A stretch of 64,000 nt of DNA from a virus. Lineage: Duplodnaviria; Heunggongvirae; Uroviricota; Caudoviricetes. The notes beneath the pieces were generated by a model. The model worked only from the letters and a program-made list of their open reading frames with translations. It did not search any database and was not told where the DNA came from. A program made the position numbers and the translations under genes. Positions 6,917 through 19,267 of this stretch are shown in pieces. Where the stretch lies: IMG/VR virus record IMGVR_UViG_2795385681_000001, positions 1-64,000 of that record; one strand, 5' to 3'. Each line of letters begins with the position of its first letter. Position 1 is the stretch's first letter.

Positions 6917-7107
6917 TCCACTGCCCAACCCCCCATAAGGAGGTGTATGCCAACAGGGGCGTGGCGCTAAAAGCAATGAAGGACATACGTAAACGATGCA
7001 AGGCACCGCATTCAAACAGGCGGTACATCCCACTAGAGCCGTACCCCTGCCGGTGCGGTGAATACCATCTGTGCACTGCGGACAAGGCGAAGTTCAGAAG
7101 GAAGTAG
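6913..7107 (+). CDS. hypothetical zinc-ribbon-like protein (64 aa)
   Basis: CPTPH..CKAPH..CRCGEYH motifs. Confidence 0.45.
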   Translation: MIHCPTPHKEVYANRGVALKAMKDIRKRCKAPHSNRRYIPLEPYPCRCGEYHLCTADKAKFRRK

Positions 7108-7111
7108 AGAA

Positions 7112-7146
7112 GAGGGTCAGCCCATAAGGGTTGGCCCTTTTCTTTC
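7112..7146 (+). terminator. rho-independent terminator ending the early arm
   Basis: agggtcagccc-ataa-gggttggccct followed by a T-rich tail. Confidence 0.6.
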
Positions 7147-7217
7147 GCCCGGATCGTTAGTCAATCTAATCAGCTACACACCCAATCATTCAGTCTCCTG
7201 CTGTATCATCTGTGACT

Positions 7218-8609
7218 ATGCGAGCTGCTGTCTACCTGCGCCAATCCATGGACCGTGATGGCGATGGGTTGGCTGTCGAACGGCAGCGTGAAGACTGTCT
7301 GAAGATCTGCACAGACCGAGGCTGGGAGCCCACCCAGTACATCGACAACGACACCAGCGCAAGCAGGGGGCGACGCCCTTCCTATGAGCGCATGCTCTCT
7401 GACATTCGTAGCGGCCATATAGATGCGGTAGTGGCGTGGGACCTCGATCGCCTACACCGGCAGCCCAAAGAGCTGGAGCAGTTCATCGAGCTGGCCGACG
7501 AGAAACGACTCTCTCTGGCGACCGTAGGTGGTGACGCTGACCTATCCACCGACAACGGGAGGCTATTCGCGCGTATTAAGGGCGCGGTGGCCAAGGCTGA
7601 GGTGGAACGTAAGTCAGCCAGGCAGAAGCGCGCCTTCCTTCAGATGGCCCAGTCCGGCAAGGGCTGGGGCCCTCGCGCCTTCGGGTATAACGGGGACCAT
7701 GAGAAGGCGAAGATCGTTCCCAAGGAAGCTGACGCACTGCGCAGTGGGTACAAGATGCTCATGTCCGGCGAGACGCTCTACTCCATCGCGAAGAGCTGGA
7801 ACGACGCCGGTCTGAAGACGCCCCGGGGCAACCTATTCACCGGCACCACAGTGCGCAGAATCCTCCAGAATCCACGCTATACAGCCACACGCACCTACCG
7901 CAATGAAACCGTGGGAGATGGCGACTGGCCAGCGATCGTTGATGAGACGACCTGGGAAGCCGCCCACTCCATCCTCAGCGATCCGTCTCGACACCAGCCA
8001 CGCCAGGTGCGTCGATACCTACTGGGTGGACTACTCACATGTAGCGAGTGCGGGAACAAGATGGCTGTGGGTGTGCAGCACAGAAAGAACGGGAACGTTC
8101 CTATCTATCGGTGCAAGCATGTCAGCTGTGGCCGAGTAACGCGCCGTGTTGAACGGATGGATGAGTGGGTGAAAGAGCTTGTCCTACGCAGGATGTCGAG
8201 CAGGCATTGGGTTCCCGGCAATCAGGACAACCGAGAGCTAGCCCTCGAGTTGCGCGAGGAGCTCGACGCTATCAAACACCGAATGGATTCTCTAGCAGTC
8301 GATTTTGCTGAAGGCGAGCTGACCTCCAGCCAGCTGCGCATCGCCAATGAGCGACTACAGGTGAAGCTGGATGAGGTAGAGAGCAAGCTGCGGCGCACCA
8401 ATGTGAAACCACTCCCCGATGGAATACTCACCGCGAATGACCGTGGCCGCTTCTATGACGAGATGTCACTCGATGCAAGACGGGCCCTCATTGAGGCGCT
8501 ATGCGACTCGATTGTGGTGCACCCCATCGGACTCAAGGGAATGCAGGCCACCCACGCTCCGCTCGGGCACAACATCGACGTCCACTGGCACAAGCCCAGT
8601 AATGGATGA
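7218..8609 (+). CDS. int: large serine recombinase (serine integrase)
   Basis: N-terminal resolvase domain AVYLRQSMD carrying the catalytic Ser; central recombinase and zinc-ribbon (CSECG..CKHVSCGR) regions; coiled-coil C-terminus. Confidence 0.85.
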   Translation: MRAAVYLRQSMDRDGDGLAVERQREDCLKICTDRGWEPTQYIDNDTSASRGRRPSYERMLSDIRSGHIDAVVAWDLDRLHRQPKELEQFIELADEKRLSLATVGGDADLSTDNGRLFARIKGAVAKAEVERKSARQKRAFLQMAQSGKGWGPRAFGYNGDHEKAKIVPKEADALRSGYKMLMSGETLYSIAKSWNDAGLKTPRGNLFTGTTVRRILQNPRYTATRTYRNETVGDGDWPAIVDETTWEAAHSILSDPSRHQPRQVRRYLLGGLLTCSECGNKMAVGVQHRKNGNVPIYRCKHVSCGRVTRRVERMDEWVKELVLRRMSSRHWVPGNQDNRELALELREELDAIKHRMDSLAVDFAEGELTSSQLRIANERLQVKLDEVESKLRRTNVKPLPDGILTANDRGRFYDEMSLDARRALIEALCDSIVVHPIGLKGMQATHAPLGHNIDVHWHKPSNG

Positions 8610-8692: not shown

Positions 8693-8950
8693 TCATCTGG
8701 GTAGAACCTTACTCACTTGCTTCATAACCTCAGCGATGAGCGCCCATGAGCCGTCCGAGTATCGGTGGTGCAGGGTGCCAGATGCGCTGGCTTTCGGAAT
8801 CTTCGTCCCATCCAAAAGCCTGGCGGCACGCTGCTCTGCGTTCCAGCGGTAGACGTATGCACTACCACGGTCAGGGGTGAACATCTCCTCGCGCGAGATG
8901 AATACTTCACCAATAACTCTGCTATTAACCATAATTGGAATGATCAGCAC
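8693..8950 (-). CDS. hypothetical protein (85 aa)
   Basis: GTG start overlapping the stop of the upstream gene. Confidence 0.4.
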   Translation of the reverse strand: MLIIPIMVNSRVIGEVFISREEMFTPDRGSAYVYRWNAEQRAARLLDGTKIPKASASGTLHHRYSDGSWALIAEVMKQVSKVLPR

Positions 8951-9609
8951 TTTGCATCCTCCAGGCCCTGGACGATCTCCACGATCTGATCAACGGTCAC
9001 GGGCGTGTAGTCCCACGCATCTACACCGACATGAATCTGAGTCGTCCTCGACACCGACGACGCACCATCCCAGCGAGGCATGCCGTAGCTGAGCTTCTCA
9101 GCACTGTGCGTGTGGCCATGAATGATGTAGTGCCCATGGTCAGGTAGACGCCACTCGGGATAGCGGTCCTCATCCGTATGGTCGCCCGTGTACGGGAAGT
9201 GGGACACCATCGCGGTTACATGACCCTCGCGCAGTGGAATTCGACGCTTAGCGGCCAACTGGACGGTCTTAAACGCGCCATCCAAATATATCGGCAGCCA
9301 CTTGTGCGAGTCGCGGTGGAGAGGGTGGGGACCGCAGTGGTTCCCGGGGATGAGGTGTTTATCCCCATTGCGGTCTCGGATCCAGTCGAGCGCCTTCAGT
9401 TGGGCGGTCTTCGTCCCAGATGAGATGTCGCCCAGCACCCATACCACGTCATCGGGTGCGACTACGCGGTCCCAGAGGCGAGCTAGCGTGTTGTCATGGC
9501 CGTCTACTTCCACTCCCACATAGCGCGGTAGCACCCATCCGCGCGTACGTTCCCTGGCTACCTTCTCGTGACCGATGTGTAGGTCAGAAGTGAACCAAAC
9601 CTTGCTCAC
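8944..9609 (-). CDS. metallophosphoesterase (calcineurin-like phosphoesterase)
   Basis: Motifs SDLHIGH, VLGDI, GNHC and HGHTH. Confidence 0.8.
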   Translation of the reverse strand: MSKVWFTSDLHIGHEKVARERTRGWVLPRYVGVEVDGHDNTLARLWDRVVAPDDVVWVLGDISSGTKTAQLKALDWIRDRNGDKHLIPGNHCGPHPLHRDSHKWLPIYLDGAFKTVQLAAKRRIPLREGHVTAMVSHFPYTGDHTDEDRYPEWRLPDHGHYIIHGHTHSAEKLSYGMPRWDGASSVSRTTQIHVGVDAWDYTPVTVDQIVEIVQGLEDAKC

Positions 9610-9610
9610 G

Positions 9611-10045
9611 TTAGCTCCTTGAATCTGTTGCGCTCAATGCCAGCCTTCTGTCCGTTGACGTGTGGCACCCATGGCATAGGGGTTCGTAGTGCTCAGGGTC
9701 GGGGCTATAGCGCATGGCGCGTAAATCCCCTGACCTTGCGTCGAGGATCTCTTCAGAACGCTCTCGTTGGCAGTCATGCATATAGGCCCAAGCAGATGCC
9801 ATCGCCCCGCATCCTCTTGCGCACGGATGTAGCCGCGCGGTGCCACGAATCGACTTCACGCGCATATGTGCCGCGTCGTAACCGATCGCATCGCCCTTCC
9901 ATCCGGGGTGTGCAGAACCCCTGGGCGGCACACCGACCATGAGTGGATCGCCGTGTTTCTTCCAACGTCGATAGTGCAGTCTGCACCAACCCCATGCACG
10001 TACCGGTCGGCCACAGCCTTCAATGGCGCATGGATTGGCTACCAC
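9611..10045 (-). CDS. HNH endonuclease
   Basis: CAIEGCGRPVRAWGWCRLHYRRWKKHG N-terminal zinc motif typical of phage HNH nucleases. Confidence 0.7.
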   Translation of the reverse strand: MVANPCAIEGCGRPVRAWGWCRLHYRRWKKHGDPLMVGVPPRGSAHPGWKGDAIGYDAAHMRVKSIRGTARLHPCARGCGAMASAWAYMHDCQRERSEEILDARSGDLRAMRYSPDPEHYEPLCHGCHTSTDRRLALSATDSRS

Positions 10046-10728
10046 CCGAAATTCCGATCGACATAAACCTGGTTCTGTGGTCGGATGAAGTCCGAATCCG
10101 CTGGTGGCATGTCCGATTCAGTGATACGGATCAGCAGACGCCAACCACGCTCGGTGGCTTGCGATGCCTGGTGAATGTTCCACCAATCCCACGAGTACCA
10201 AACAGCTTCTTGCGCAACCAGCTTCCGTAGAGTGGTGCACCCGTCAATCCGGCGAGTCATCTCCGAGTACATCTGCTCGTCTTCGTCGTGCTCAATTGGC
10301 AAGTGCATCAGGCCGTCGATGAATACAGTTGGGCAGTCGTTACCAACATGCAGAGTGTGGTAGCGCGGGTAATAGCCCTCAAGGGACCGATCATTCTGCA
10401 GCGGCAGGGACGGCATGCCCCAATTCGCCGGGTTCACAGTCTTGTCTGTCACGCTGTAGCGCGGAACCCCATCGGTATGCCACCCGGGAATCGCAGGCCA
10501 CCACCCGGGCATCAGCATCGACACCTTTGTGTCCACCGTGATGTGCCTGTGGTCCCCCACAATTGGGGCCGACTGCAGGAGCTGACGCAGAAATGGGCCA
10601 CCGAATAGCACCGCGTTGGACAGGCTGGCGCGGCGCAGGTTTGGCGTCCCCTCGATCAGGCCAGGGGGATCTGAATACGCTTGGGATCCAATGACCACCG
10701 GGTTGCGGTTGAACCAGTATGTGGTCAC
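10039..10728 (-). CDS. hypothetical protein (229 aa)
   Basis: Long ORF in the minus-strand operon; no recognised motif. Confidence 0.55.
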   Translation of the reverse strand: MTTYWFNRNPVVIGSQAYSDPPGLIEGTPNLRRASLSNAVLFGGPFLRQLLQSAPIVGDHRHITVDTKVSMLMPGWWPAIPGWHTDGVPRYSVTDKTVNPANWGMPSLPLQNDRSLEGYYPRYHTLHVGNDCPTVFIDGLMHLPIEHDEDEQMYSEMTRRIDGCTTLRKLVAQEAVWYSWDWWNIHQASQATERGWRLLIRITESDMPPADSDFIRPQNQVYVDRNFGW

Positions 10729-11078
10729 AGTAGCTTCAACTCCCCTGTGATCGGAGCGAGCTCTTCAACCGTTGCAGGTCCAATAGCGCAACACGTGGTC
10801 GTCAAGATGCCATGGAATTCGGTCTTACCGTTATCCGTAATCAGCGCGTTTGGGAGGTTGGCTTTAATTGCCTTGCCCCAGAGGTCAATCAGTGCGTCTT
10901 CGCTCTCCACCCGCACACAGACCTTCGTGAACGAACCGGCGAGCCACTCGACCACCCGTGGGTCATCGCGGTACTCGAGAACGGCACCCAGAGAGGCGTG
11001 AGCACCTTGTGAAACCATCTTCCCGGCACGCATGCCGAGATCCTTACGCATGATAATCATTTGCTTCAGTTCACTCAT
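10725..11078 (-). CDS. pth2: peptidyl-tRNA hydrolase, PTH2 family
   Basis: MIIMRKDLGMRAGKMVSQGAHA matches the PTH2 aminoacyl-tRNA hydrolase N-terminus. Confidence 0.75.
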   Translation of the reverse strand: MSELKQMIIMRKDLGMRAGKMVSQGAHASLGAVLEYRDDPRVVEWLAGSFTKVCVRVESEDALIDLWGKAIKANLPNALITDNGKTEFHGILTTTCCAIGPATVEELAPITGELKLL

Positions 11079-11194
11079 CGCTGTTCACCTCTCCCATAAT
11101 CTGAGCTCCGTCATAGACAGTCACTGGGTCGTAATCGCAAGCTGAATCTCTGAATCCCTTGCCCGGGATTACGGGGTACCTCTCCCACCAGAAC

Positions 11195-11716
11195 TCACCG
11201 AGCAAGAGCGCACGGGCCTGTGTGTGGGTCAATGTGGTAATCGACAACCGGTGAGCACAGTGGTCCACCGAACCCAAAGTTGATTACTGAGATCCCCGCC
11301 TTCTTGGCTCGCTTCATGCAGTCCCACGTACCACGTGAGTCCTTCAGCGGGAAGGCGATACAGATGTCAGCGCCGAGATCCACCATCTTCTGATTGCGAA
11401 GGTGTCCAGCCACTGGGCAGTAACGACTACCGTTCTTCCACCTTGGAGCGTGTGTGCAGTGGTAATCGCACTCGCGATTCCAGTCAGCCGGATGTGGCTC
11501 GTTCTTCACGCGGAATTGTCCCGTGGCTTCGCGGCACTTCGCCCAATCAGCTGCGAATAGATCCGCGCCTGAAGGGCATTCGCCTTGCACTACAACGAGC
11601 TCTAGACCGCGTTTATGAGCCTTGAGCCACTGTGAGTTCAGTGAACTCTGAACATACTTGCGGGAAGGCCAATCACGACTCCCCGTAACTAAGACTCGTC
11701 GGGACAATTCAGTCAT
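11195..11716 (-). CDS. SLOG/DprA-like Rossmann-fold protein (DUF2493-like)
   Basis: N-terminal RVLVTGSRDW motif. Confidence 0.45.
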   Translation of the reverse strand: MTELSRRVLVTGSRDWPSRKYVQSSLNSQWLKAHKRGLELVVVQGECPSGADLFAADWAKCREATGQFRVKNEPHPADWNRECDYHCTHAPRWKNGSRYCPVAGHLRNQKMVDLGADICIAFPLKDSRGTWDCMKRAKKAGISVINFGFGGPLCSPVVDYHIDPHTGPCALAR

Positions 11717-11886
11717 GATCGGATGATGCCCACGACGGTCACGACTAGGCCGAGCAAGAGCATGACGAGTGCTAGTGGGAGTAAAGTTGTTGGCAGATCA
11801 TAGATTCCACCCATGTTTGACATGCCGAGCGATCCGCCTATTAGCATGCCGGAGAAGTATGGGTACAGCGGATTGACGTTGCCCAT
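11713..11886 (-). CDS. small membrane protein (58 aa, below the ORF-track cutoff)
   Basis: ATG 3 nt after the RtcB stop; hydrophobic C-terminus; TGA overlaps the ATG of the next gene. Confidence 0.35.
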   Translation of the reverse strand: MGNVNPLYPYFSGMLIGGSLGMSNMGGIYDLPTTLLPLALVMLLLGLVVTVVGIIRS

Positions 11887-11888
11887 TG

Positions 11889-13115
11889 CTAGGTTCCCTT
11901 CACATTCAGTATCTGGCGCAGCTCAGTTACAACCTCAACCAGAGGCTCCGCGTCTTTCATCACCTGATCGATCGGCTTGTAACAGGAAGGGATCTCGTCA
12001 ATCCACTGCTCACCATGCCGGTACTCAATGCCCTGCATCTGCTCAGCCAAGTCCTCAAGGGTGAAGAGCTCCTTGGCCTTTGTTCGCGAGAATCGCCTCC
12101 CGGCACCATGCGGAGCAGAGAACAGGCCATCCTTGTTGCCCCGACCCCGGACCACATAGGAGCGTGTCCCCATCGAACCGGGGATAAGCCCCAGCTTCCC
12201 CTCCGACGCATCGATCGCGCCCTTCCGGGTCAGCCATACCTTCCGCCCGTCGATTTCAGTCGCAACCGTGTAGTTGTGGTGGCAGTTCACGCGATCGAGC
12301 TCGACGCGTTGGGATTGAACGCCAAGCCAATCCGCAAAGACCCGGACGTAGCGGTCCATCATCTCGGCACGGTTGTCGTAGGCGAACTGTTGGGCCCACC
12401 TCAAGTCCTTGATGTAGCGGTCGAACTCGCACGTGCCCTCGGAGAGGTATGCGAGATCCTTGTTCGCTACAGGCTCCGCGATGCCATAGCGCTGGTGCTT
12501 CACCAGTTGGTTCTGCGCAGCCTTGATGTGCTTCTGCGCGATCTTGTTGCCAACACCGCGACTGCCGGAGTGCAGGAACAACCACACCGTGTCGTCAGAG
12601 TCCAGGCACAGCTCAATGAAGTGGTTCCCACCGCCGAGAGACCCCAATTGCTCCATCCACTTCGGGGAGTGCGAGAGGTCAACGTTCAGCTCATTCTGGA
12701 GCTGAATCAGTCCCTCAATACGCTTGCGTGTGAACGGGAATCGCTTCGTGTCAGCGTTGTAGTTGCCTGGGGATAGTGGGATCGCCTCTTCTATCGCGAC
12801 GCGCAGGCGGGACAGATGACTCTTGTACGCACCGTCGAAGCGCTCCAGCAGGTTGCACTCAGTGAACCGAGTCTTCACCGCGATCATGCCGCATCCAATG
12901 TCCACGCCTACCGCAGCAGGTATGACAGCGCCAACGGTTGGGATCACGGTGCCAACAGCAGAACCCTTGCCCGAGTGTGCATCCGGCATCAGTGCCATAT
13001 GGGGGTAGATGAACGGCAACGTCGCCGTCTCTTTGGCCTGCTCGATCGTCGTGTAGTCGATCTCCGAGGCGAACGAAATGATGTTGTCGCCAATCCGCTG
13101 GCTCAATTCCTTCAT
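11889..13115 (-). CDS. rtcB: RNA-splicing ligase RtcB
   Basis: 408 aa with the RtcB signature (PDAHSGKGSAVGTVIPT, GNHFIELC, SGSRGVGN, the HNY motif). Confidence 0.9.
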   Translation of the reverse strand: MKELSQRIGDNIISFASEIDYTTIEQAKETATLPFIYPHMALMPDAHSGKGSAVGTVIPTVGAVIPAAVGVDIGCGMIAVKTRFTECNLLERFDGAYKSHLSRLRVAIEEAIPLSPGNYNADTKRFPFTRKRIEGLIQLQNELNVDLSHSPKWMEQLGSLGGGNHFIELCLDSDDTVWLFLHSGSRGVGNKIAQKHIKAAQNQLVKHQRYGIAEPVANKDLAYLSEGTCEFDRYIKDLRWAQQFAYDNRAEMMDRYVRVFADWLGVQSQRVELDRVNCHHNYTVATEIDGRKVWLTRKGAIDASEGKLGLIPGSMGTRSYVVRGRGNKDGLFSAPHGAGRRFSRTKAKELFTLEDLAEQMQGIEYRHGEQWIDEIPSCYKPIDQVMKDAEPLVEVVTELRQILNVKGT

Positions 13116-13140
13116 GTACCAATCGTATTGAGCCTCTTGG

Positions 13141-13154
13141 GGTTCATGTGGGTA
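13141..13154 (+). promoter_or_regulatory. 14-bp repeat GGTTCATGTGGGTA (copy at the RtcB start)
   Basis: Exact match. The minus strand reads TACCCACATGAACC, giving an 11-codon mini-ORF MNPKRLNTIGT* whose TGA overlaps the RtcB ATG. Confidence 0.6.
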
Positions 13155-13156
13155 CG

Positions 13157-13185
13157 AAAAAAGCCCCCAGCTTTCGCTGAGGGCT
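13157..13185 (-). terminator. stem-loop with a T-run between the tRNA array and rtcB
   Basis: Minus strand reads gccctcagcgaaagctgggggc followed by TTTTTT. Confidence 0.5.
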
Positions 13186-13193
13186 CTTCCGAG

Positions 13194-13264
13194 TAGTCCA
13201 TGCGGGAATCAAACCCGCACCAACACCTTGAGAGGGTGGTGTGCTCTCACTACACCAATGGACC
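13194..13264 (-). tRNA. tRNA (anticodon not resolved)
   Basis: T-arm gcggg-TTTGATT-cccgc (minus sense) with a complementary acceptor. Confidence 0.45.
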
Positions 13265-13270
13265 TAAGGG

Positions 13271-13609
13271 TTATCGCTCAACCCACGTGCCGGATTCGCG
13301 AACCTCGGTCTTGAGGTTCACCGGCCACATATCACGCTCCACCTGGGCACGCTGTAGGTCTTCACGACCAACCTGACGTTTCACCCATAGCTGGAACTTC
13401 GGCGAGCTCGCCATACGCTTGAACGCGGCCTGCTTGTTCTGCAGCTGGCTACGCTCCTCGCGCGACTCACCCACAGCACCGGACGGTTCATGCGTGATCC
13501 GCACACCCGTCTCGCGCTTGTTCTGGTTTTGACCGCCCTTGCCCCCAGACCGGAATGTGTCAACACGACAATCCGCGAGGGTGACAGACACTACTCGTTC
13601 TCTACTCAC
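13271..13609 (-). CDS. arfB: ArfB-like peptidyl-tRNA hydrolase / ribosome rescue factor (RF-1 GGQ domain)
   Basis: FRSGGKGGQNQNKRETGVRITHEPSG carries the GGQ motif of class I release factors and ArfB (YaeJ); basic C-terminal tail. Confidence 0.7.
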   Translation of the reverse strand: MSRERVVSVTLADCRVDTFRSGGKGGQNQNKRETGVRITHEPSGAVGESREERSQLQNKQAAFKRMASSPKFQLWVKRQVGREDLQRAQVERDMWPVNLKTEVRESGTWVER

Positions 13610-13610
13610 G

Positions 13611-13683
13611 TCAAGTCGACGGGATTTGAACCCGCGTCTTCCGCCTCGACAGGGCGACGCTCTGGACCTCTAAGCTACGACTC
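13611..13683 (-). tRNA. tRNA-Asp (GTC)
   Basis: Cloverleaf parsed by hand: acceptor cgagtcg/cgacttg, anticodon loop ctGTCga, T-loop TTCAAAT. Confidence 0.7.
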
Positions 13684-13794
13684 GATACGCCGTTTTCCGC
13701 ACGCCGGTTTTCGAGACCGACGCGCCAGGGTGGACGGCACCCTGAGCAGACTTTCTGGGAATCAAACCCTGGAGCAGCTCTGCAAAAACTCCCG

Positions 13795-13866
13795 TGGAGA
13801 ATCGGGGAATCGAACCCCGGACGCTGGTGTGCAAAACCAGTGCTTTACCAACTAAGCTAAATCCCC
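13795..13866 (-). tRNA. tRNA-Ala (TGC)
   Basis: Acceptor GGGGATT with the G3:U70 identity pair; D-arm gcttagttggtaaagc; anticodon loop ttTGCac; T-loop TTCGATT. Confidence 0.75.
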
Positions 13867-13892
13867 ATCTAAGCTTCAGGAAGGACATATTT

Positions 13893-14321
13893 ATGAAGCT
13901 CAACCGCATTACTGAACTGGTAGCCAACTCGGCTCACCTGGACGGCCTATCCAACAAGATCCTTAAGCACGCTGACGCGGTCGAGGTCTTAGAATCCGGT
14001 GTCCTTAAGGTTATTTCGCGCTCCGTCCACGATGACGCTACTTGCGAAGACAGCCTTTACCTGGCTCCAGGCGAATGGAAGTCGTTCGCTCAAAGGGGCA
14101 CAACCGTGGTGATCGAGTCCGAGGTCCAAGTCTTTGACTTCGAGATGGGCCTCTCAACCGAAGGCTGCGTCAACTTCGTAGCCGCGTACTTTGAACGAGC
14201 TGAAGGTTACGATCCAGATAACGCTCGCGACCTCGCTCGCGAGGTGGTCTACAACCAGCCGGTTGGTAAGGTCTATGGGTCCAACAAGGTCAAGTTTAGG
14301 TTCGTTTCGAACCCGAACTAG
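13893..14321 (+). CDS. hypothetical protein (142 aa) inside the tRNA array on the opposite strand
   Basis: Strong RBS aggaagga before ATG 13893; clean ORF; listed ORF 13794..14321 trimmed. Confidence 0.5.
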   Translation: MKLNRITELVANSAHLDGLSNKILKHADAVEVLESGVLKVISRSVHDDATCEDSLYLAPGEWKSFAQRGTTVVIESEVQVFDFEMGLSTEGCVNFVAAYFERAEGYDPDNARDLAREVVYNQPVGKVYGSNKVKFRFVSNPN

Positions 14322-14347
14322 TCCTCCACGGATCCAACTACCTACGA

Positions 14348-14420
14348 GCCGCATCGAGGTCTCGAACCCCGTACCTCTTCGTTACTAAGGAAGCGCTCTA
14401 GCCTGATGAGCTAATGCGGC
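14348..14420 (-). tRNA. tRNA-Thr (AGT), tentative anticodon
   Basis: Acceptor GCCGCAT/ATGCGGC perfect; D-arm gctcatcaggctagagc; T-loop TTCGAGA. Confidence 0.6.
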
Positions 14421-14425
14421 AAAGT

Positions 14426-14495
14426 ACCTTGCGAGAGAATTGAACTCCCATCCTCGGGGTGTAAACCCGGTGCCCTTCCGTTGGACGAGCAAGGC
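14426..14495 (-). tRNA. tRNA-Val (TAC), tentative
   Basis: T-arm gagag-TTCAATT-ctctc; acceptor gccttgc/gcaaggt; anticodon loop ttTACac. Confidence 0.5.
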
Positions 14496-14621
14496 ATATG
14501 AGCTTTTGGTTGAGGGTGCCCATGCTGCAGCGAGAGGTCCCTGGCGGATGCTCTATCCGCGCACAAGCTTCCGGCGACAACCGAGGTCTCCACCGTAGGG
14601 TCGCCCATCCCAGGGCGTCGA

Positions 14622-14694
14622 ACGAGTGACCAGATTCGAACTGGCACGATCTGTTTGGAAGACAGAGATGCTAACCGTTAAACATCACACTCGC
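14622..14694 (-). tRNA. tRNA-Gly (TCC)
   Basis: T-loop TTCGAAT; anticodon stem tctgt/acaga with loop ctTCCaa. Confidence 0.6.
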
Positions 14695-14699
14695 ATGGA

Positions 14700-14765
14700 G
14701 CGGCAGAGGTGACTCGAACACCCTTGCAGCGGCTTAGGAGGCCACGCACTTTCCGGAACTACCGC
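14700..14765 (-). tRNA. short tRNA-like gene, possibly Arg (CCT)
   Basis: T-arm gggtg-TTCGAGT-cacct, acceptor gcggtag/ctgccgc, but only about 66 nt with a reduced D-arm. Confidence 0.3.
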
Positions 14766-14770
14766 TTGGT

Positions 14771-14841
14771 AGGTTCGCACAGAATTGAACTGTGATTGCC
14801 GACGTATCAGATCGGTGTCCTTACCGTTGGACGACGAACCA
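14771..14841 (-). tRNA. tRNA-Ile (GAT)
   Basis: T-arm cacag-TTCAATT-ctgtg; D-arm gtccaacggtaaggac; anticodon loop ctGATac. Confidence 0.65.
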
Positions 14842-14843
14842 GT

Positions 14844-14914
14844 GGGTCTGGTAGGACTCGAACCTACGTCTCCGACTTAAGAGGACGGAGCTAAACCATC
14901 TCAGCTACAAACCC
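14844..14914 (-). tRNA. tRNA-Lys (CTT)
   Basis: T-arm gtagg-TTCGAGT-cctac; anticodon loop ctCTTaa. Confidence 0.6.
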
Positions 14915-14924
14915 ATTGTTGGTA

Positions 14925-14993
14925 GGGCGCACGGGATTTGAACCCGCAACTCATAGATTAAAAGTCTAGGGTGATTCCGTTTCACCAACGCCC
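14925..14993 (-). tRNA. tRNA-Lys (TTT), tentative
   Basis: T-arm cggg-TTCAAAT-cccg; acceptor gggcgtt/tgcgccc; anticodon loop ctTTTaa. Confidence 0.5.
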
Positions 14994-14994
14994 A

Positions 14995-15207
14995 TTAACT
15001 TGTGATCGCAGGAAACGCTACCCACACATGCGGGTGAGCCTTCCTATATCCATCGCGCCCACATGAGCGCTCAGAGTGGTATCGCTGACAGTCACTAGCT
15101 CTAACGCCGTACTCTGCTTCAACTAGGGCCCTAGCACCTTCCGGGGTGAGCTCCTTGCCCCAGGCAAGATACGAGGCCCCCGCAGCTGTCAGGCGATACT
15201 TGTTCAC
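14995..15207 (-). CDS. possible small protein (70 aa, GTG start) between tRNAs
   Basis: Listed ORF with protein-like composition (LAWGKELTPEGARALVEAEYGV); weak RBS; could be spurious. Confidence 0.25.
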   Translation of the reverse strand: MNKYRLTAAGASYLAWGKELTPEGARALVEAEYGVRASDCQRYHSERSCGRDGYRKAHPHVWVAFPAITS

Positions 15208-15209
15208 GT

Positions 15210-15283
15210 AGTCGGCGCGAGGATCGAACTCGCAGACACCGAGGTTTGAGCTCGGCGGCTTTGCCAGGTTTGCCTAGCCGACC
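15210..15283 (-). tRNA. tRNA with anticodon CAA (Leu-type) but a class I body
   Basis: T-arm gcgag-TTCGATC-ctcgc; anticodon stem ccgag/ctcgg perfect with loop ctCAAac; short variable arm. Confidence 0.5.
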
Positions 15284-15353
15284 AGGCTCGGTGTTTGATC
15301 ACGCAGCTTTACCGAAGTACTGCGGGCCCTTTCACGGGGGCCAGTCGTCGAGT

Positions 15354-15427
15354 ACTCCGAGAGGGATTCGAACCCACAACCTCCAGGGTCTAAGCCTGTC
15401 GCCTCTGCCAAATTGGGCTACCGGAGC
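15354..15427 (-). tRNA. tRNA with anticodon TAG (Leu-type) but a class I body
   Basis: Acceptor gctccgg/tcggagt; T-loop TTCGAAT; anticodon loop ctTAGac; short variable arm. Confidence 0.5.
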
Positions 15428-15531
15428 ATGGTGCCGATACTTTGTGTAGAGCGCCACCCGCTATCTGGGGTAACACGCGCCCAAGCGCCTCGGCCAACGA
15501 GGGAGTTTCACCTTATCGACGGCGCTTTGGA

Positions 15532-15602
15532 GACGAAGACCGGATTCGAACCGGTGTGGGTCAGGGTTGCAGCCTGCCAGCTAGCCACTCACTCACTTCG
15601 CC
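15532..15602 (-). tRNA. tRNA-Cys (GCA)
   Basis: T-arm accgg-TTCGAAT-ccggt perfect; anticodon loop ctGCAac. Confidence 0.6.
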
Positions 15603-15610
15603 TTGTGGTT

Positions 15611-15698
15611 GGTGTGCGCAGGAATTGAACCTGCCGGGGACCATAACGCGAGAACTCGCGCTGCGGACTCGAACCGCCCTCTCACCGAGAGACACACC
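15611..15698 (-). tRNA. tRNA-like region with two T-arm motifs (class II tRNA or tRNA plus fragment)
   Basis: gcagg-AATTGAA-cctgc and gcgg-ACTCGAA-ccgc on the + strand lie within 88 nt; no single cloverleaf resolved. Confidence 0.3.
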
Positions 15699-15715
15699 AG
15701 GTTCGATGCTATCCC

Positions 15716-15879
15716 CTATTCTGCGGCTGGGGCGACCTTCTTAGCCGGTGCCTTCTTAGGCGCTGGCTTCTCTTCAACCGCGTAGTTGAAGTCCTCGAGA
15801 TTGGCAACTCGGGAGATCAGATCATTGACGGCATCGACTACCGGCTTCGGCGCGATTCCGCTCTTCAGAAATTCAGTCA
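15716..15879 (-). CDS. small Lys/Ala/Pro-rich protein (54 aa, GTG start) inside the tRNA array
   Basis: RBS aaagggtag before the GTG; protein VTEFLKSGIAPKPVVDAVNDLISRVANLEDFNYAVEEKPAPKKAPAKKVAPAAE with a histone-like tail; below the ORF-track cutoff. Confidence 0.3.
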
Positions 15880-15904
15880 CTACTACCCTTTCCAAGGTTG
15901 AACG

Positions 15905-15974
15905 TCCCTATGCACGGTTACGATCCGTGGTCGCCGGGGTCACATCCCGGAGCTCTGCCATTGAGCTACACAAG
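15905..15974 (-). tRNA. tRNA-His (GTG) with an unusual T-loop
   Basis: Canonical D-arm GCTCAATGGCAGAGC; anticodon stem ccggg/cccgg with loop atGTGac; T-arm cacgg-ATCGTAA-ccgtg. Confidence 0.5.
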
Positions 15975-16082
15975 GTATGGAGCAAGTGGCCATGGTGTCC
16001 CACATCTGACGGGCTGCGGTAACCGACGCGTGGCTGTGGCATTCCATGTTTATCCGGGCTCTCCATCACCGGCACTTGTCGA

Positions 16083-16156
16083 CCCGTTGACAGGATTCGA
16101 ACCTGCATGCGTTGCGCCTTCGTAGGGCGGTGGGCGCTCCATTGCCCAACAACGGG
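16083..16156 (-). tRNA. tRNA-Arg (ACG)
   Basis: Acceptor cccgttg/caacggg perfect; T-loop TTCGAAT; anticodon loop ctACGaa. Confidence 0.65.
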
Positions 16157-16217
16157 ATTGGAGCCGCATTGGTGCTAGGCTGCGGCGGGCCTAACCAGGT
16201 GCCCCTGGATTTTGCGT

Positions 16218-16291
16218 GGCGGGGGTGGGATTTGAACCCACGGTCTCTGACTTATGAGGACAGCGAGATGGCCGAACTTCTCTACCCCGAC
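16218..16291 (-). tRNA. tRNA-Met (CAT)
   Basis: T-arm gtggg-TTCAAAT-cccac perfect; anticodon loop ctCATaa. Confidence 0.6.
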
Positions 16292-16412
16292 ATGAGACTC
16301 ATTCCGATAGGACAGTTCATCGCCTACCGTATCCGCGCGAGTCGACGCGACCGTTTACGTGGAGTGCCCGGTTTTTCACCAGTAACCGTGGAAGCTGGTT
16401 TCCCTTACACGC

Positions 16413-16486
16413 CGGATCGCTTGGAGTCGAACCAAGGCCCTCTCGGGTTTCAACCGAGCGCTCTCACCAAACTGAGCTACGAACCG
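16413..16486 (-). tRNA. tRNA-Phe (GAA)
   Basis: D-arm gctcagtttggtgagagc; anticodon stem ctcgg/ccgag perfect with loop ttGAAac; T-arm cttgg-TTCGACT-ccaag. Confidence 0.75.
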
Positions 16487-16781
16487 ATTTTTGTTAGAGG
16501 CTGAGAGTACACCTGCTATCGAGAACCTTTGCGGCATTATTGATTCGCCACTTCTCCACGTCATTCCTGAACGTAGTTCTCACGCCCGGTCGGTTACGCC
16601 AACCACTCGTCATGCCGAAAGCTACTCCGCGACTTTGGTTTCGCGATGGGATGGCCGTCCCATCGTTGCGCTACTTGTCTACGAACCACCGTCGCCTTGC
16701 GAGCTCGTGATGGCCCTGGTTCCCGAAGGCCAGGGATTAGAGGCGCTTTTGCTCCTCGGCAGGGGAAGGACTTTTGCTTTT

Positions 16782-16851
16782 ATTGACGACGGGAATCGAA
16801 CCCGCACATCCTGTTCCATATACAGGTGGCCTGCCGTTGGCCTACGTCATT
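16782..16851 (-). tRNA. tRNA (anticodon ambiguous, loop atATGga)
   Basis: T-arm cggg-TTCGATT-cccg; D-arm ggccaacggcaggcc; anticodon stem cctgt/acagg perfect. Confidence 0.5.
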
Positions 16852-17292
16852 CTCGCAGCGGAGAATGATTTGACTGAAGACGTGCTTCCCCATGAAGTTC
16901 CGAACCCTTTTGGGGCACAGAATGCTTCACGTCTCTCGCGCTTTCGCCTGGCGGGGCTAATAACACTCTCTCTCAACCGCATTGCGAGCCGTCACCCGAC
17001 GCGAGATCGATCATGGAAAACGCCCTTGCTTGCGAGGTTCGGACTCAGTTCCCTCCGCTCCACAGGAGGCTTGTTCAATAGCGCTTTCCACCGCACGACG
17101 GCTTGGTAGTCCCACCGGTTCACGGCCCTGGACTCACGCGTAACTCGCCACCTGGCAGCCATCTCTGACTGCTCAAGGATTGGATTGCATGGATTGCCCT
17201 TGCGGGTGGTGGGTTGTCACCCCACCTTTCACCACCTTGCGGTGACTTATGGGCCATGCCCCGAATGTCTAAACAATATCCCCCACAACAGA

Positions 17293-17305
17293 GTTCGTGT
17301 GGGTG
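17293..17305 (+). promoter_or_regulatory. variant copy of the 14-bp repeat (GTTCGTGTGGGTG) in the intra-array spacer
   Basis: 12/13 match to GTTCATGTGGGTG. Confidence 0.4.
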
Positions 17306-17378
17306 ACCCTGGCGTGCGTTAGCCAACCACCGGGGCCAGACAGATCGTGGGGCCGTAGCCGCAGGATCCGTACTTTGC

Positions 17379-17460
17379 GGAGAGGCAGGTATTCGAAACC
17401 TACTGCGAGCAGCGATCCGGTTAGCAACCGGGCCTAGTCACCTGACTAGTTGCGCTCTCC
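17379..17460 (-). tRNA. tRNA-Ser (GCT), class II
   Basis: 82 nt; anticodon stem ccgg/ccgg with loop ttGCTaa; long variable arm; T-arm aggt-TTCGAAT-acct. Confidence 0.65.
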
Positions 17461-17541
17461 AAAATCCACCCCTTCGGCGTCAACACTGGACTCGACGCAC
17501 CTGTATTCACTCTTAGCCATGGCCAGGCGGGTGGAGAACGA

Positions 17542-17625
17542 GGAAGGTAGAGGAATCGAACCCCCGAGTTTTCAGGCTCGCCCCGGTATTCGACGCCGGT
17601 TGCCGACCATTCAGCGGTGCCTTCC
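17542..17625 (-). tRNA. class II tRNA, probably Ser (CGA)
   Basis: 84 nt; T-arm ggggg-TTCGATT-cctct; acceptor ggaaggc/accttcc; anticodon loop gtCGAat; tentative. Confidence 0.45.
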
Positions 17626-17706
17626 ATATGCCCCATTTTGATAACGCAACTGGAGCTACTGCGGACAGTCAACTCATGGCAGGTACCTACCGGTTGACCC
17701 AAACGC

Positions 17707-17777
17707 TGACGACCCTGGATTCGAACCAAGAACTGCGAAGTTCAGAGCTTCGTGTGTTGCCGTTACACCAATCGTCA
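17707..17777 (-). tRNA. tRNA-Gln (CTG)
   Basis: D-arm gtgtaacggcaacac; anticodon stem cgaag/cttcg perfect with loop ctCTGaa; T-loop TTCGAAT. Confidence 0.7.
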
Positions 17778-17857
17778 AAGCTGAGACTGGCCTTGCGGGC
17801 AGTGGAACGTTTCTGCTTGCCGCAAGCCTTCAGTTCGTTCCACACCAGTCTCATTGT

Positions 17858-17933
17858 CTCGCCGTCAGGAGTCGAACCTGCACACCCAAAGGAACAGATT
17901 TACAGTCTGCGTTGATCGCCTATTCGCGACGAG
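17858..17933 (-). tRNA. tRNA-Tyr (GTA)
   Basis: T-arm gcagg-TTCGACT-cctga; anticodon loop ctGTAaa; extended variable region. Confidence 0.55.
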
Positions 17934-18011
17934 ATTGGAGGCACATCTTTTGCAGTGATGTGCCAATTCGTCTGGCCCACAATCGGATAGCTACTCCACT
18001 GTCGACGGCGC

Positions 18012-18082
18012 TGGCCTACCTGGACTCGAACCAGGAGTCAGGGATTAACAGTCCCACGGTTTGCCGATTAACCGACAGGCCA
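18012..18082 (-). tRNA. tRNA-Asn (GTT)
   Basis: T-arm cctgg-TTCGAGT-ccagg perfect; D-arm ggttaatcggcaaacc; anticodon loop ctGTTaa. Confidence 0.7.
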
Positions 18083-18288
18083 AGACCTCGGATATTTCAC
18101 GTCGATACCGAGGATAGGACGGACACCTTTCGCGGTCTCCCGCTCAGCTGTCAAGCTGGCCCAGATTCTCCCGACCTCACGGGTTAGCTCTGTGGCAGGC
18201 GCTTAGGTCTACTTCCCACCATGGTGACGCTAGGTGGGCGTAGCGGACAGTTCCCTTCTCGTGGAGGTGTACTGACAACCCGTCCCGT

Positions 18289-18358
18289 CAAGCTGGGAGG
18301 AATTGAACCTCCACCACCGGTACCCAAAACCGGCATGATCCCGTTTCACTACAGCCTG
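18289..18358 (-). tRNA. tRNA-Pro (TGG)
   Basis: T-arm ggagg-TTCAATT-cctcc perfect; anticodon stem ccggt/accgg perfect with loop ttTGGgt. Confidence 0.7.
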
Positions 18359-18642
18359 ATTGATGAACGACACGGCCCAGGTACGGCACCTCAGATCGGT
18401 GGCGGTTAGGCCCCTACTGCGGGATTACCCTGTCGTTCATTTGACCATCAGCATCCCGATGGCCGCGCGGAGATGTCTCTCCACATTCCCCGTAAGAACC
18501 GCTCCGTTCCGAGCGCTACTCGTACTTGGTTCTGGTTATGCGAGCCGGGGCCACGCGTCGTTTAACGAGGGTGCTCTGCCACTGAGCTACGGCCAGGGGG
18601 CTCCCCTAGCTGACCGGGATCGAACCGGCAACCTCCCTCTCG

Positions 18643-19007
18643 TGGAGCTGTGCGGAATTGAACCGCAGTCTTACGCTTCTCTTCACTGCCTTCTACGTGC
18701 GTAGTGATTTGGCTGCTTCTATACCGCTGCCCTACACAAAGCGGTTCGTCGGGCTTGCCACCGACGCTGCGTCACTTGCGCTGTTAGCCTCTGCGTAGTG
18801 TTTCTTCGTCACCTTTGAGGGTTCCCCGTATTGGCGACGGTGGATTGGTACACGGAACGGGTAAACCGTTATACCCCACCGGACTATGCCGCTAGGACGT
18901 AGTCGGACTGATGAGCGTTTGCGCTTATCAAGGTTGCACTGTTACGGGCGTTGCTTCCCGGCACGCTTCTCAGTAAGTTGACACGCAATCGAATGCCTGT
19001 CAGCCCC
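18643..19007 (-). ncRNA. ssrA: tmRNA (SsrA), about 365 nt, encoding tag peptide ANAHQSDYVLAA
   Basis: Minus-strand 5' end GGGGCTGACAGGCATTCGA pairs with 3' end GCGGTTCAATTCCGCACAGCTCCA (tRNA-like domain). Internal ORF GCAAACGCTCATCAGTCCGACTACGTCCTAGCGGCATAG gives A-N-A-H-Q-S-D-Y-V-L-A-A-stop, close to the mycobacterial tag ADSHQRDYALAA. Confidence 0.75.
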
Positions 19008-19063
19008 ATTGAAACTACTATCTCTATGGAGTTTTCAAATGTCATGCCACACAGGGGCATTGC

Positions 19064-19133
19064 ACGGGTGGAGAGAATCGAACTCCCACTAACGGGTTTG
19101 GAATCCGTTGTCCTACCTTTGGACCACACCCAT
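19064..19133 (-). tRNA. tRNA-Trp (CCA)
   Basis: T-arm gggag-TTCGATT-ctctc; anticodon loop ttCCAaa; first gene after the upstream motif and terminator. Confidence 0.65.
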
Positions 19134-19208: not shown

Positions 19209-19247
19209 AATAAAAATGGGCCCCGATCCGCTGAGGAACCGGGGCCC
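19209..19247 (-). terminator. rho-independent terminator after gene 19268..19448
   Basis: Minus strand: ggccccggttcctcagcggatcggggcc followed by CATTTTTATT. Confidence 0.65.
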
Positions 19248-19267
19248 AAACGCCGTGAAGTCAGTGC

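Follow-up and report, generated by a model that had tools for sequence, protein, structure and literature searches.

A mini release factor in a phage tRNA array and the mosaic RtcB and Pth2 genes downstream of it

The tRNA array and its downstream genes

The window analyzed here is a stretch of 64,000 nucleotides from a tailed phage record of IMG/VR (IMGVR_UViG_2795385681_000001). Its minus strand carries an array of 22 tRNA genes (13193..19133, delineated with ARAGORN and Rfam) that also encloses a tmRNA, a GOLLD RNA and the gene of a 112-aa protein with a GGQ motif, with genes for an RtcB-family RNA ligase and a Pth2-type peptidyl-tRNA hydrolase next to the array on the same strand. The tmRNA (18640..19007, minus strand; ARAGORN, and Rfam RF00023 with 92 bits) encodes the tag peptide ANAHQSDYVLAA. 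The GOLLD RNA (16498..16937, minus strand) matches Rfam RF02032 over its full length with 203 bits, against a cut-off of 150, and contains a tRNA-like element at 16781-16851, so that the 'tRNA-His(atg)' named by ARAGORN lies within GOLLD. The GGQ gene (13271..13609, minus strand) is located at the end of the array, between tRNA-Asp(GTC) (13610..13684, minus strand, by ARAGORN; 13611-13684 in the Rfam match) and tRNA-Glu(CTC) (13193..13264, minus strand; ARAGORN and Rfam), the last gene of the array. Inspection of the sequence at these boundaries places the discriminator base of tRNA-Asp at 13611, followed by a single C (13610) and the GTG start codon of the GGQ gene at 13609; at the other end, 6 nt separate the stop codon of this gene from tRNA-Glu.

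The RtcB protein (408 aa, 11889..13115, minus strand) contains no intein and is aligned with the entire PF01139 profile (369 bits, positions 1-426 of 426), and the motifs DIGCG, GGGNHF, HSGSRG and SAPHGAGR are retained in the alignment with the RtcB of P. horikoshii. Among subfamily models, it comes closest to the exteins of an RtcB clade that carries inteins, and the score with PRK09588 (167 of 407 bits) falls below the cut-off. Next to RtcB is a hydrophobic 57-aa ORF (11713..11886, minus strand, from the ORF list) that has no family matches in Pfam or PHROG and is probably a small membrane protein; in prophi86-1, small 'membrane protein' genes adjoin RtcB on the tRNA-Glu side. It is followed by a gene for a YAcAr/SLOG-domain protein (173 aa, 11195..11716, minus strand; PF10686 with 40.6 bits, PHROG 289), named 'DprA-like' in the relatives of this phage.

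The Pth2 protein (117 aa, 10725..11078, minus strand) matches PF01981 over its full length with 103.8 bits (cut-off 23) and TIGR00283 with 91.2 bits (cut-off 82), scores 102.6 bits with NF003314, below the cut-off of 126, and aligns end to end with the Pth2 of M. jannaschii (2zv3). Its stop codon is overlapped by the GTG start (GTGA) of a 229-aa protein gene (10039..10728, minus strand) identified with the PHROG 1843 profile, which accompanies RtcB in Mycobacterium and Gordonia phages; for this protein, searches of Pfam, NCBIfam and PDB sequences yielded no match. Further along is a calcineurin-type metallophosphoesterase (8944..9609, minus strand; PF00149 with 43.6 bits, PHROG 547), which is named 'MRE11-like' in relatives and recurs beside RtcB in the MabI-type lineage. 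The preliminary description of this DNA had located the RtcB, Pth2 and GGQ ORFs, and their coordinates, strand and domain assignments, as well as the position of the GGQ gene between the two tRNAs at the end of an array with a tmRNA, all proved right, with the curated Pfam thresholds passed in each of the three cases.

By megablast, the window is ∼84% identical to the prophages prophiGD54-2, prophiT49-2 and prophi86-1, and its individual segments show 72-97% nucleotide identity to cluster MabI-type relatives. In prophi86-1, a Mycobacterium abscessus prophage of cluster MabI, the gene order is the same as in the window and the features are already annotated; the same annotation exists for prophiGD54-2, although that prophage lacks Pth2. 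The layout of the GGQ gene, tRNA array, RtcB and Pth2 is not new, as annotations and discussions of prophiGD54-2 and prophi86-1 already cover it, and the region is a translation-support island of the kind that Vilmaviridae-type mycobacterial prophages (clusters MabI, M and V) typically carry. The combination of tRNAs, tmRNA and release factor among the early lytic genes has been interpreted as translational reprogramming (Dedrick 2021), RF-1, Pth and tmRNA have been noted within mycobacterial tRNA arrays (Morgado and Vicente 2018, PMC5966550), and phage tRNAs, RtcB and PTH2 have been interpreted as repair or rescue functions (Iyer et al. 2021, PMC7824862). The tRNA, RtcB and PTH2 sets of jumbo phages (PMC7824862) and the mycobacterial tRNA array units (PMC5966550) share with the window both the set of functions and the published rationale, namely tRNA supply, repair of cleaved tRNAs and recycling of peptidyl-tRNA. 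The window differs from both in its setting, a ∼80-kb temperate siphovirus-type prophage, and in the presence of the GGQ gene, tmRNA and GOLLD RNA inside the array. A role in translation maintenance, as originally proposed for these genes, is a standard and reasonable reading; the portrayal of the GGQ protein as ArfB-like and uncommon, and of the genes as one module, fails.

Architecture of the GGQ protein

The 112-aa protein matches the RF-1 domain model PF00472 with 68.8 bits (cut-off 35) at residues 7-69 and is a member of PHROG 3122, with a full-length profile match (E = 3.8e-59, residues 1-112 on profile positions 19-130 of 136). The same family includes, over the full length, the mycobacteriophage genes annotated as 'RF-1 peptide chain release factor', among them prophi86-1 gene 136, prophiGD54-2 gene 125, Nappy 211 (Bixzunavirus, cluster C1) and EniyanLRS 129. 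The protein from the window is 91-97% identical to its counterparts in MabI-type prophage contigs and ∼72% identical to those in C1 and V phages; in the MabI prophages, the gene likewise lies between tRNA-Asp and tRNA-Glu, with the same neighbors, so that nothing essential sets the copy in the window apart from these relatives beyond a few percent of sequence.

Domain 3 of RF1/RF2 gives the top matches among PDB sequences and folds, and the scores with the RF1, RF2 and PrfH models reach 55-71 bits, compared with 24-26 bits for ArfB. The RF1 and RF2 scores (64-71 bits) are far under the respective cut-offs of 370-423, and the matches are confined to the GGQ-domain stretch (positions 222-284 of 353 in RF2). 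On the strength of these matches, the GGQ domain is assigned to class-I release factor domain 3, RF-1 type. Model searches detected neither the codon-recognition superdomain (domains 2/4, with the PxT or SPF motif) nor domain 1 in the 112 residues. The C-terminus aligns with the switch loop and the first domain-4 strand of mtRF1, with no other domain-4 counterpart. AlphaFold, run with an alignment, gave a model of mean pLDDT 86 in which residues 71-110 are predicted to form helices and a beta-hairpin (pLDDT 72-90 for 10-residue blocks). The loop of the GGQ motif, which in free release factors is flexible off the ribosome, has a mean pLDDT of 66 in this model (residues 21-30) and is not disordered there; values below 50 for this block appear in the single-sequence model only. 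As predicted from sequence, then, this protein is a mini release factor made up of domain 3 and the helix that follows it, with the switch loop and first domain-4 strand reduced to a short remnant; it lacks the codon-reading domains as well as a basic tail of the ArfB type.

Like ArfB/YaeJ and ICT1, the mini release factor is a small, stand-alone GGQ protein without codon-recognition domains, and its codon independence is presumed. This likeness, along with a size close to that of ArfB, a weak ArfB match that spans the GGQ motif and the proximity of RtcB, Pth2 and tmRNA, speaks for the initial proposal that the protein is an ArfB/YaeJ-type sensor of the empty mRNA channel on non-stop ribosomes that functions with Pth2 and RtcB as one coordinated module. 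The match to the ArfB equivalog model NF006718 amounts to 25.6 bits (cut-off 100) and is limited to residues 6-40, and the profile of the family matches ArfB chains with 24 bits at positions 14-38, the GGQ domain being of the RF1/RF2 type, unlike that of ArfB. In ArfB, a flexibly linked basic C-terminal tail becomes helical inside the empty mRNA channel, and activity is lost when this tail is mutated (PMC3950681). A basic tail and flexible linker of this kind were not found in the mini release factor by charge analysis of 37 family members or in the AlphaFold model: in the copy from the window, residues 70-112 carry +2 net, the mean tail charge across the 37 members is 0.03 (range -4 to +3), and in place of the unstructured linker and basic helical tail of ArfB, a structured, uncharged helix and hairpin are predicted. 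The ArfB identity is largely refuted on these grounds, and the proposal as a whole is highly improbable.

Conservation extends over the full length of the homologs, the C-terminus included. Across the 37 diverse members, G25, G26 and Q27, the surrounding residues of the catalytic domain, W75 and W109 are invariant. This pattern bears on the suggestion that the protein, instead of functioning as a hydrolase in vivo, is a decoy or inhibitor that alters host termination, such as one that sits in the A site or titrates the release factor methyltransferase. Such a role would fit with the lack of a recognizable targeting element and with the manipulation of termination by some phages via release factor genes, which is described in a paper on stop-codon recoding. 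The invariance of the GGQ motif and nearby catalytic-domain residues, together with the short architecture shared by over 150 clusters (50% identity), is the pattern expected from selection for catalysis, and makes a decoy exceedingly unlikely.

In mtRF-R (C12orf65), too, a minimal GGQ domain is followed by a short C-terminal extension, and by analogy, the mini release factor could act on split 50S subunits that retain peptidyl-tRNA, replacing a quality-control route that actinobacteria lack. We consider this unlikely: the mini release factor is clearly closer in sequence to RF1/RF2 than to C12orf65 (32 bits), the cellular setting is different, and mtRF-R acts together with the RNA-binding protein MTRES1 (title of 7a5h), whereas a search within 4 kb of the mini release factor gene in 80 loci revealed no conserved partner gene. 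The 'RNA binding protein' encoded next to the gene in EniyanLRS is acidic and has no Pfam match.

Spread of the family and linkage of the genes

The preliminary description considered a phage-borne factor of this kind uncommon, which is wrong: by tblastn, the gene is present in 286 phage records, 208 of these from Mycobacterium phages, and the family comprises the more than 150 clusters mentioned above. The best 150 matches among 1.84 billion cluster representatives are all short proteins (82-216 aa), most of which cover nearly the whole profile. At least three tRNAs are located within 10 kb of the gene in 31 of the 80 viral loci, often 20-37 of them and nearly always on the same strand; the other 49 loci have fewer than three. 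After de-duplication and removal of the MabI-type lineage, at least three tRNAs remain at 19 of 61 loci, compared with 2 of 26 in a control, a small set of loci of another RNA-repair gene, RtcB (Fisher p = 0.027). A start codon that follows the upstream tRNA with zero gap is seen in the MabI-type loci and locus L010, where this tRNA is tRNA-Asp, and with other tRNAs in two unrelated lineages. In cluster C1 phages, the gene lies outside the tRNA array, between DnaE and RecA.

The association does not extend to the two other genes. RtcB is found no more than 10 kb from the mini release factor gene in 4 of the 80 loci (two MabI-type ones, the related L010 and one distant locus), and outside the MabI-type lineage, the gene hardly ever has RtcB or Pth2 nearby; there, it travels with tRNA arrays and not with these genes. 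Even in close relatives, the presence of any one of RtcB, the SLOG gene and Pth2 does not depend on that of the others. Pth2 is present in prophi86-1 and prophiT49-2 and missing in prophiGD54-2, and the slot downstream of the array holds the SLOG gene alone, RtcB alone or both. The window joins all three, as does prophi86-1; other relatives hold subsets.

An intrinsic-terminator-like hairpin (13155..13191, minus strand), with a G+C-rich stem, a GAAA loop and a run of six U, is located between tRNA-Glu and RtcB. Its fold energy is -24.9 kcal/mol (z = -4.9; none of 200 shuffled sequences folds as well), it is kept in nine MabI-type relatives with paired changes in the stem, and at locus L090, a hairpin of another sequence with a U-tract occupies the same position. 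The array transcript probably ends at this conserved hairpin and U-tract and would thus be separate from the RtcB unit. The original notion of a module overstated the linkage, given the independent gene presence, the rare co-occurrence elsewhere and the intervening terminator.

These observations also weigh on a reading by analogy with the PrfH-RtcB2 operon, in which the mini release factor would free the peptide from ribosomes with a ribotoxin-cut 16S decoding center and the neighboring RtcB would religate the rRNA. The likeness is that of a release factor-derived GGQ protein next to an RtcB ligase, in surroundings where RNA damage is plausible. The match to the PrfH model TIGR03072 is 54.6 bits (cut-off 166.65) and covers model positions 105-179 only; PrfH is ∼200 aa long, and the mini release factor lacks the N-terminal segment that would correspond to the rRNA-recognition domain of PrfH. 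The RtcB protein scores 143.4 bits, against a cut-off of 271.8, with TIGR03073, the model of the PrfH-paired RtcB2, and by this measure is not of the RtcB2 type. In contrast to the operon, the two genes in the window are separated by the terminator, in apparently different transcription units, and are unlinked across phages: RtcB is nearby in just the 4 of 80 loci noted above, and close relatives hold one gene without the other. Such a pair is therefore quite improbable.

Two probable transcription units and the likely role of the mini release factor

The explanation that we favor, with moderate confidence, is that the region consists of two separate units, an array transcript that includes a codon-independent mini release factor, and downstream mosaic RtcB and Pth2 genes. 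From the domain identities, family architecture, gene contexts and terminator, all computed here, we infer the biochemical activities, substrates and expression route as follows. The first unit would be transcribed from tRNA-Trp through the tmRNA, GOLLD, the other tRNAs, tRNA-Asp, the mini release factor gene and tRNA-Glu to the hairpin and U-tract. The mRNA of the mini release factor would probably be released when the tRNA precursor is processed, and be translated with essentially no leader. Leaderless expression is suggested by the geometry, in which the spacer base C13610 would stay on the mRNA. The protein could then move into the vacant A site of stalled ribosomes, such as might result from tRNA cleavage, tRNA depletion or mRNA truncation, and place its GGQ motif in the peptidyl-transferase center while the uncharged C-terminal stub docks at the usual site of the release factor switch loop. 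Peptidyl-tRNA would be hydrolyzed without codon reading and the ribosome freed. In the second unit, downstream of the array, which appears to be an independent set of mosaic accessory genes, RtcB would reseal RNAs, most likely tRNAs, that bear 2',3'-cyclic-phosphate and 5'-OH ends, and Pth2 would recycle peptidyl-tRNA already off the ribosome.

Most likely, then, the mini release factor is a codon-independent peptidyl-tRNA hydrolase that acts on stalled ribosomes and is co-expressed with tRNAs. The literature searched yielded no biochemical data on members of this family. What counts against this role is that a GGQ domain devoid of codon reader and basic tail has no established means of choosing stalled ribosomes, and that no conserved partner that might target it was found within 4 kb in the 80 loci.

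A more far-reaching, tentative reading joins these threads. The 112-aa protein may represent a third architecture of codon-independent release factors, domain 3 with a switch-loop stub and neither a codon reader nor a tail for the mRNA channel. Phages of many host phyla might have repeatedly placed it in tRNA arrays, with leaderless expression via tRNA punctuation and, in some lineages, a stop codon inside the next tRNA, and it could free ribosomes stalled by tRNA cleavage or depletion in host defense. To our knowledge, neither ArfB nor tmRNA handles stalls caused by tRNA cleavage or depletion, because in these the mRNA stays intact in the A site. If this reading is correct, the mini release factor would cover such stalls, in which tRNA is lost and the A site still holds intact mRNA.

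Genes and RNAs beside the tRNA array

The three minus-strand open reading frames (ORFs) of the preliminary description are borne out by the ORF list, namely, Pth2 (10725-11078), RtcB (11889-13115) and a 112-aa GGQ protein, the mini release factor (mini-RF, 13271-13609). All three pass the curated Pfam thresholds and no failure of the RF-1 model was seen: Pth2 matches PF01981 over its full length (103.8 bits), RtcB matches PF01139 over profile positions 1-426 of 426 (369 bits), and residues 7-69 of the mini-RF match PF00472 (68.8 bits). Pth2 aligns end to end with its M. jannaschii counterpart, and the metal-binding motifs and the HGAGR nucleophile motif are kept in the alignment of RtcB with P. 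horikoshii RtcB. ARAGORN and Rfam agree on 22 tRNAs on the minus strand (13193-19133) and on a tmRNA (18640-19007, minus strand), and place the mini-RF, as initially described, beside this array, between tRNA-Glu (13193-13264) and tRNA-Asp (13610-13684), both on the minus strand.

The array also contains a full-length GOLLD RNA (16498-16937, minus strand; Rfam RF02032, 203 bits, cut-off 150), which encloses the tRNA-His(atg) predicted by ARAGORN at 16781-16851 and probably is the ‘structured RNA of about 430 nt' described by Morgado and Vicente in mycobacterial arrays. The gap between tRNA-Ala and tRNA-Thr spans ∼480 nt in the window (13867-14345) compared with 3 nt in prophiGD54-2, and for the opposite-strand ORF within this insert (13794/13893-14321), neither PHROG nor Pfam gave a match. 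Immediately upstream of tRNA-Trp, which opens the array, lies a G+C-rich, terminator-like hairpin of 13 bp with a T-run (19217-19248, minus strand), and the array is flanked by an HNH endonuclease gene (19525-19842, minus strand), an arrangement reported for cluster M arrays (Morgado and Vicente 2018, PMC5966550).

In a megablast search, the region is ∼84% identical to the M. abscessus prophages prophiGD54-2, prophiT49-2 and prophi86-1 (Vilmaviridae/Mclasvirinae), and individual segments share 72-97% identity with these prophages and with relatives in IMG/VR. The order of the annotated genes in prophi86-1 is identical to that in the window: tRNA-Asp, ‘RF-1 peptide chain release factor', tRNA-Glu, small membrane genes, ‘RtcB-like RNA ligase', ‘DprA-like', ‘peptidyl tRNA hydrolase', a PHROG 1843 homologue, ‘MRE11-like' phosphoesterase and serine integrase; prophiGD54-2 has the same set without Pth2. 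The tRNA, tmRNA and release factor set of the sister prophages has been interpreted as translational reprogramming among early lytic genes by Dedrick et al. (2021), RF-1, Pth and tmRNA genes are listed in mycobacterial tRNA arrays (Morgado and Vicente 2018, PMC5966550), and phage tRNAs, RtcB and PTH2 have been interpreted as repair and rescue against tRNA-cleaving effectors (Iyer et al. 2021, PMC7824862). For the sister M. abscessus prophages, annotation and discussion thus already cover which genes are present, where they lie and what they are likely for, so that both the observation and the gist of the interpretation have been published for these genomes.

A short release factor family

The mini-RF was initially denoted ArfB-like, but the NCBIfam models assign it 71 bits for RF2, 66 for RF1 and 55 for PrfH compared with 25.6 for ArfB (cut-off 100), the latter over residues 6-40 only. 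Among PDB sequences, a profile of 37 family members yields 56-67 bits for RF1/RF2, 55 for PrfH, 32 for C12orf65, 24 for ArfB, through the GGQ motif only, and 13 for ICT1. Judging by sequence, the mini-RF is not ArfB-like. The mini-RF matches PHROG 3122 across its entire length, and the family, far from being uncommon in phages as first supposed, is represented in 286 phage records, including cluster C1 Bixzunavirus, cluster V and MabI (an M. abscessus prophage cluster), and extends to phage contigs of 31-70% G+C. The family comprises 1,525 detected clusters at 90% identity and more than 150 at 50% identity; the best 150 of the latter, from a separate search of 1.84 billion representatives, all consist of 82-216 aa, and most cover nearly the full profile, so that the short form is the norm of the family rather than a truncation. 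The possibility that the mini-RF is a pseudogene of a truncated release factor can be dismissed given that the short form is usual among these best 150 representatives.

The alignment-based AlphaFold model of the mini-RF has a mean pLDDT of 86; disorder was looked for in the GGQ region, and the block of residues 21-30 that includes the GGQ loop, with a mean pLDDT of 66, is not disordered. The C-terminus, predicted to form two helices and a beta-hairpin, aligns with the release factor switch loop and the first strand of domain 4, and contains conserved W75, R92, P96, E102, G107 and W109. The reading of the mini-RF as an ArfB-type sensor of stalled ribosomes would build on the shared GGQ motif, but ArfB relies on a basic tail lodged in the mRNA channel (PMC3950681), whereas the C-terminus of the mini-RF is uncharged on average (mean net charge of 0.03 across 37 members), and this reading is the weaker one. 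The mini-RF is a class-I release factor domain 3 with a C-terminal stub, equipped with neither a codon reader nor a channel probe, and lacks both known means of stalled-ribosome selection. A literature search found no biochemical assay of any family member. GGQ is invariant among the 37 aligned members, and a non-catalytic decoy is a weaker explanation than release activity.

A conserved partner that could supply the selection, ArfA- or MTRES1-like, was not found near the mini-RF when all ORFs within 4 kb were clustered across 80 loci; out-of-frame shadows aside, the only recurring neighbors are HNH (9 loci), RecA (8) and SLOG (7). The ‘RNA binding protein' encoded next to the mini-RF in EniyanLRS was considered as an S4/MTRES1 analogue and rejected, being acidic and having no Pfam match. 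Action on 50S subunits in the manner of mtRF-R (C12orf65), by which the mini-RF would replace a quality-control route missing from actinobacteria (rqcH was found in 0 of 3,213 Actinobacteriota genomes), is also a weaker alternative, as the mini-RF scores clearly closer to RF1/RF2 than to C12orf65.

Genomic contexts and transcript boundaries

The co-location of the mini-RF with RtcB and Pth2 had been taken to denote a single module, and this part of the interpretation does not hold. Among 80 IMG/VR loci with a member of the mini-RF family, on contigs of 31-70% G+C, RtcB is encoded within 10 kb of the mini-RF in only four (two MabI-type loci, the related L010 and a distant one) and Pth2 in six, all MabI-type. 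At least three tRNAs are found within the same distance in 31 of the 80 loci, often 20-37 of them and nearly always on the same strand, and a tmRNA in eight. After de-duplication and removal of the window's own lineage, at least three tRNAs accompany 19 of 61 mini-RF loci versus 2 of 26 RtcB loci (Fisher p = 0.027). When the survey is centered on RtcB, tRNA arrays, PHROG 1843, the SLOG gene (encoding a YAcAr/SLOG-domain protein, the DprA-like gene of relatives; 11195-11716, minus strand) and the calcineurin-type phosphoesterase (8944-9609, minus strand) are found alongside only in Vilmaviridae-like contigs, and 27 of 39 loci have at most one nearby tRNA, no mini-RF and no Pth2; centered on Pth2, it yields a nearby mini-RF only in MabI relatives and one other contig. 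The scarcity of loci with both genes accords poorly with the mini-RF and RtcB forming a PrfH-RtcB2-type pair, a weaker alternative; the PrfH score of the mini-RF, too, is below the cut-off of that model. Between tRNA-Glu and Pth2 (11195-13115 in the window), relatives of the MabI type have either RtcB or the SLOG gene alone, or the two together (L004-L008, L012, L085), and this slot acts like an exchange point for accessory genes.

RtcB is separated from the array by a terminator-like hairpin (13155-13191, minus strand), with a G+C-rich stem, a GAAA loop and a U6 run, that follows tRNA-Glu (fold energy -24.9 kcal/mol, z = -4.9). This hairpin is kept in nine MabI-type relatives, with paired changes in the stem, and in locus L090, its position is taken by a hairpin of different sequence followed by a U-tract. 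It was spotted by reading the sequence and then confirmed by folding; a scan for consensus promoters and terminators missed it and gave no more sites than shuffled sequences. Taken together with the contexts, the terminator indicates that the mini-RF is transcribed with the tRNA array, whereas the genes located beyond the terminator, namely, RtcB, the SLOG gene, Pth2 and PHROG 1843, are mosaic accessory genes. Mycobacterial -10 elements follow the rule TANNNT; a TACGAT hexamer occupies positions -12 to -7 of the RtcB ATG (13113-13127, minus strand), and no Shine-Dalgarno sequence was found on reading the sequence before this codon. Given this spacing and the -10 rule, RtcB would fit a transcript of its own that begins with the ATG and has no leader.

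A second recurrent context of the mini-RF is next to recA, outside the tRNA array; it is seen in phages of cluster C1 and in several contigs from metagenomes (L002, L009, L011, L016, L022, L056, L057, L060, L083). In Mycobacterium phage Nappy (L002), the mini-RF (7013-7354) lies between DnaE and RecA.

The GTG start of the 229-aa PHROG 1843 protein (10039-10728, minus strand) overlaps the stop codon of Pth2 (GTGA). Sequence comparison of the protein with Pfam, NCBIfam and PDB yielded no match, and a fold search (Pfam up to E 10, PDB phmmer, profile search) gave nothing significant, the weak matches being pentapeptide-repeat noise. Its invariant residues include H84, D86, H124, H186, R197 and R201 (PxIPGWHTDGVPR ... 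WWNIH ... GWRLLIR), a set that may be akin to the HxD...H motif and Arg known from 2OG/Fe(II) oxygenases. MabI-type and cluster-M-like contigs of Mycobacterium phages, as well as Gordonia phage Bachita, encode the protein near RtcB and a phosphoesterase, and, as an uncharacterized companion of RtcB, it retains some residual interest.

Probable tRNA punctuation and a putative rescue route

The mini-RF is fitted between its tRNAs with hardly any spacer: the discriminator of tRNA-Asp (13611) is followed by a single C and the GTG start at 13609, and the TAA stop, ending at 13271, is separated by 6 nt from tRNA-Glu, which starts at 13264. Such abutment of tRNA and start codon recurs in several unrelated lineages with differing tRNAs, as a zero-gap junction of tRNA-Asp with GTG in MabI-type loci and L010, of tRNA-Leu with ATG in L032 and of tRNA-Ser with ATG in L066, L067 and L070, whereas in L076, the start lies 8 nt after the encoded CCA. 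There is no space for a ribosome-binding site, and the layout suggests that tRNA processing excises the mini-RF message in an essentially leaderless form, in which it is then translated. Leaderless translation is common in mycobacteria. In three lineages, the mini-RF frame extends 10-27 nt into the next tRNA gene (L010, 10340-10354; L020, 10336-10345; L076, 10355-10381), and RNase P cleavage there would remove the stop codon, leaving a non-stop message for the putative rescue factor.

[quoted passage not shown] RtcB would reseal cleaved tRNAs, and Pth2 would recycle peptidyl-tRNA that has fallen off ribosomes. In concert with the tRNAs and the tmRNA, the three proteins may keep translation going during lytic growth, possibly against host systems that target tRNAs or ribosomes. 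The observation of the preliminary description is thus confirmed and its interpretation partly supported.

The island itself adds little to what is known; the residual interest lies in the biochemistry of the mini-RF and its recurrent embedding in tRNA arrays. The tRNA-punctuated layout lends itself to a simple test of whether mycobacteria translate leaderless messages from processed 5′ ends. If the mini-RF releases the peptide when a ribosome stalls on an intact mRNA for lack of a tRNA, this would be a new rescue route, one that would make the mini-RF a plausible countermeasure against anti-phage systems directed at tRNAs and would help explain its carriage by phages with large tRNA arrays.
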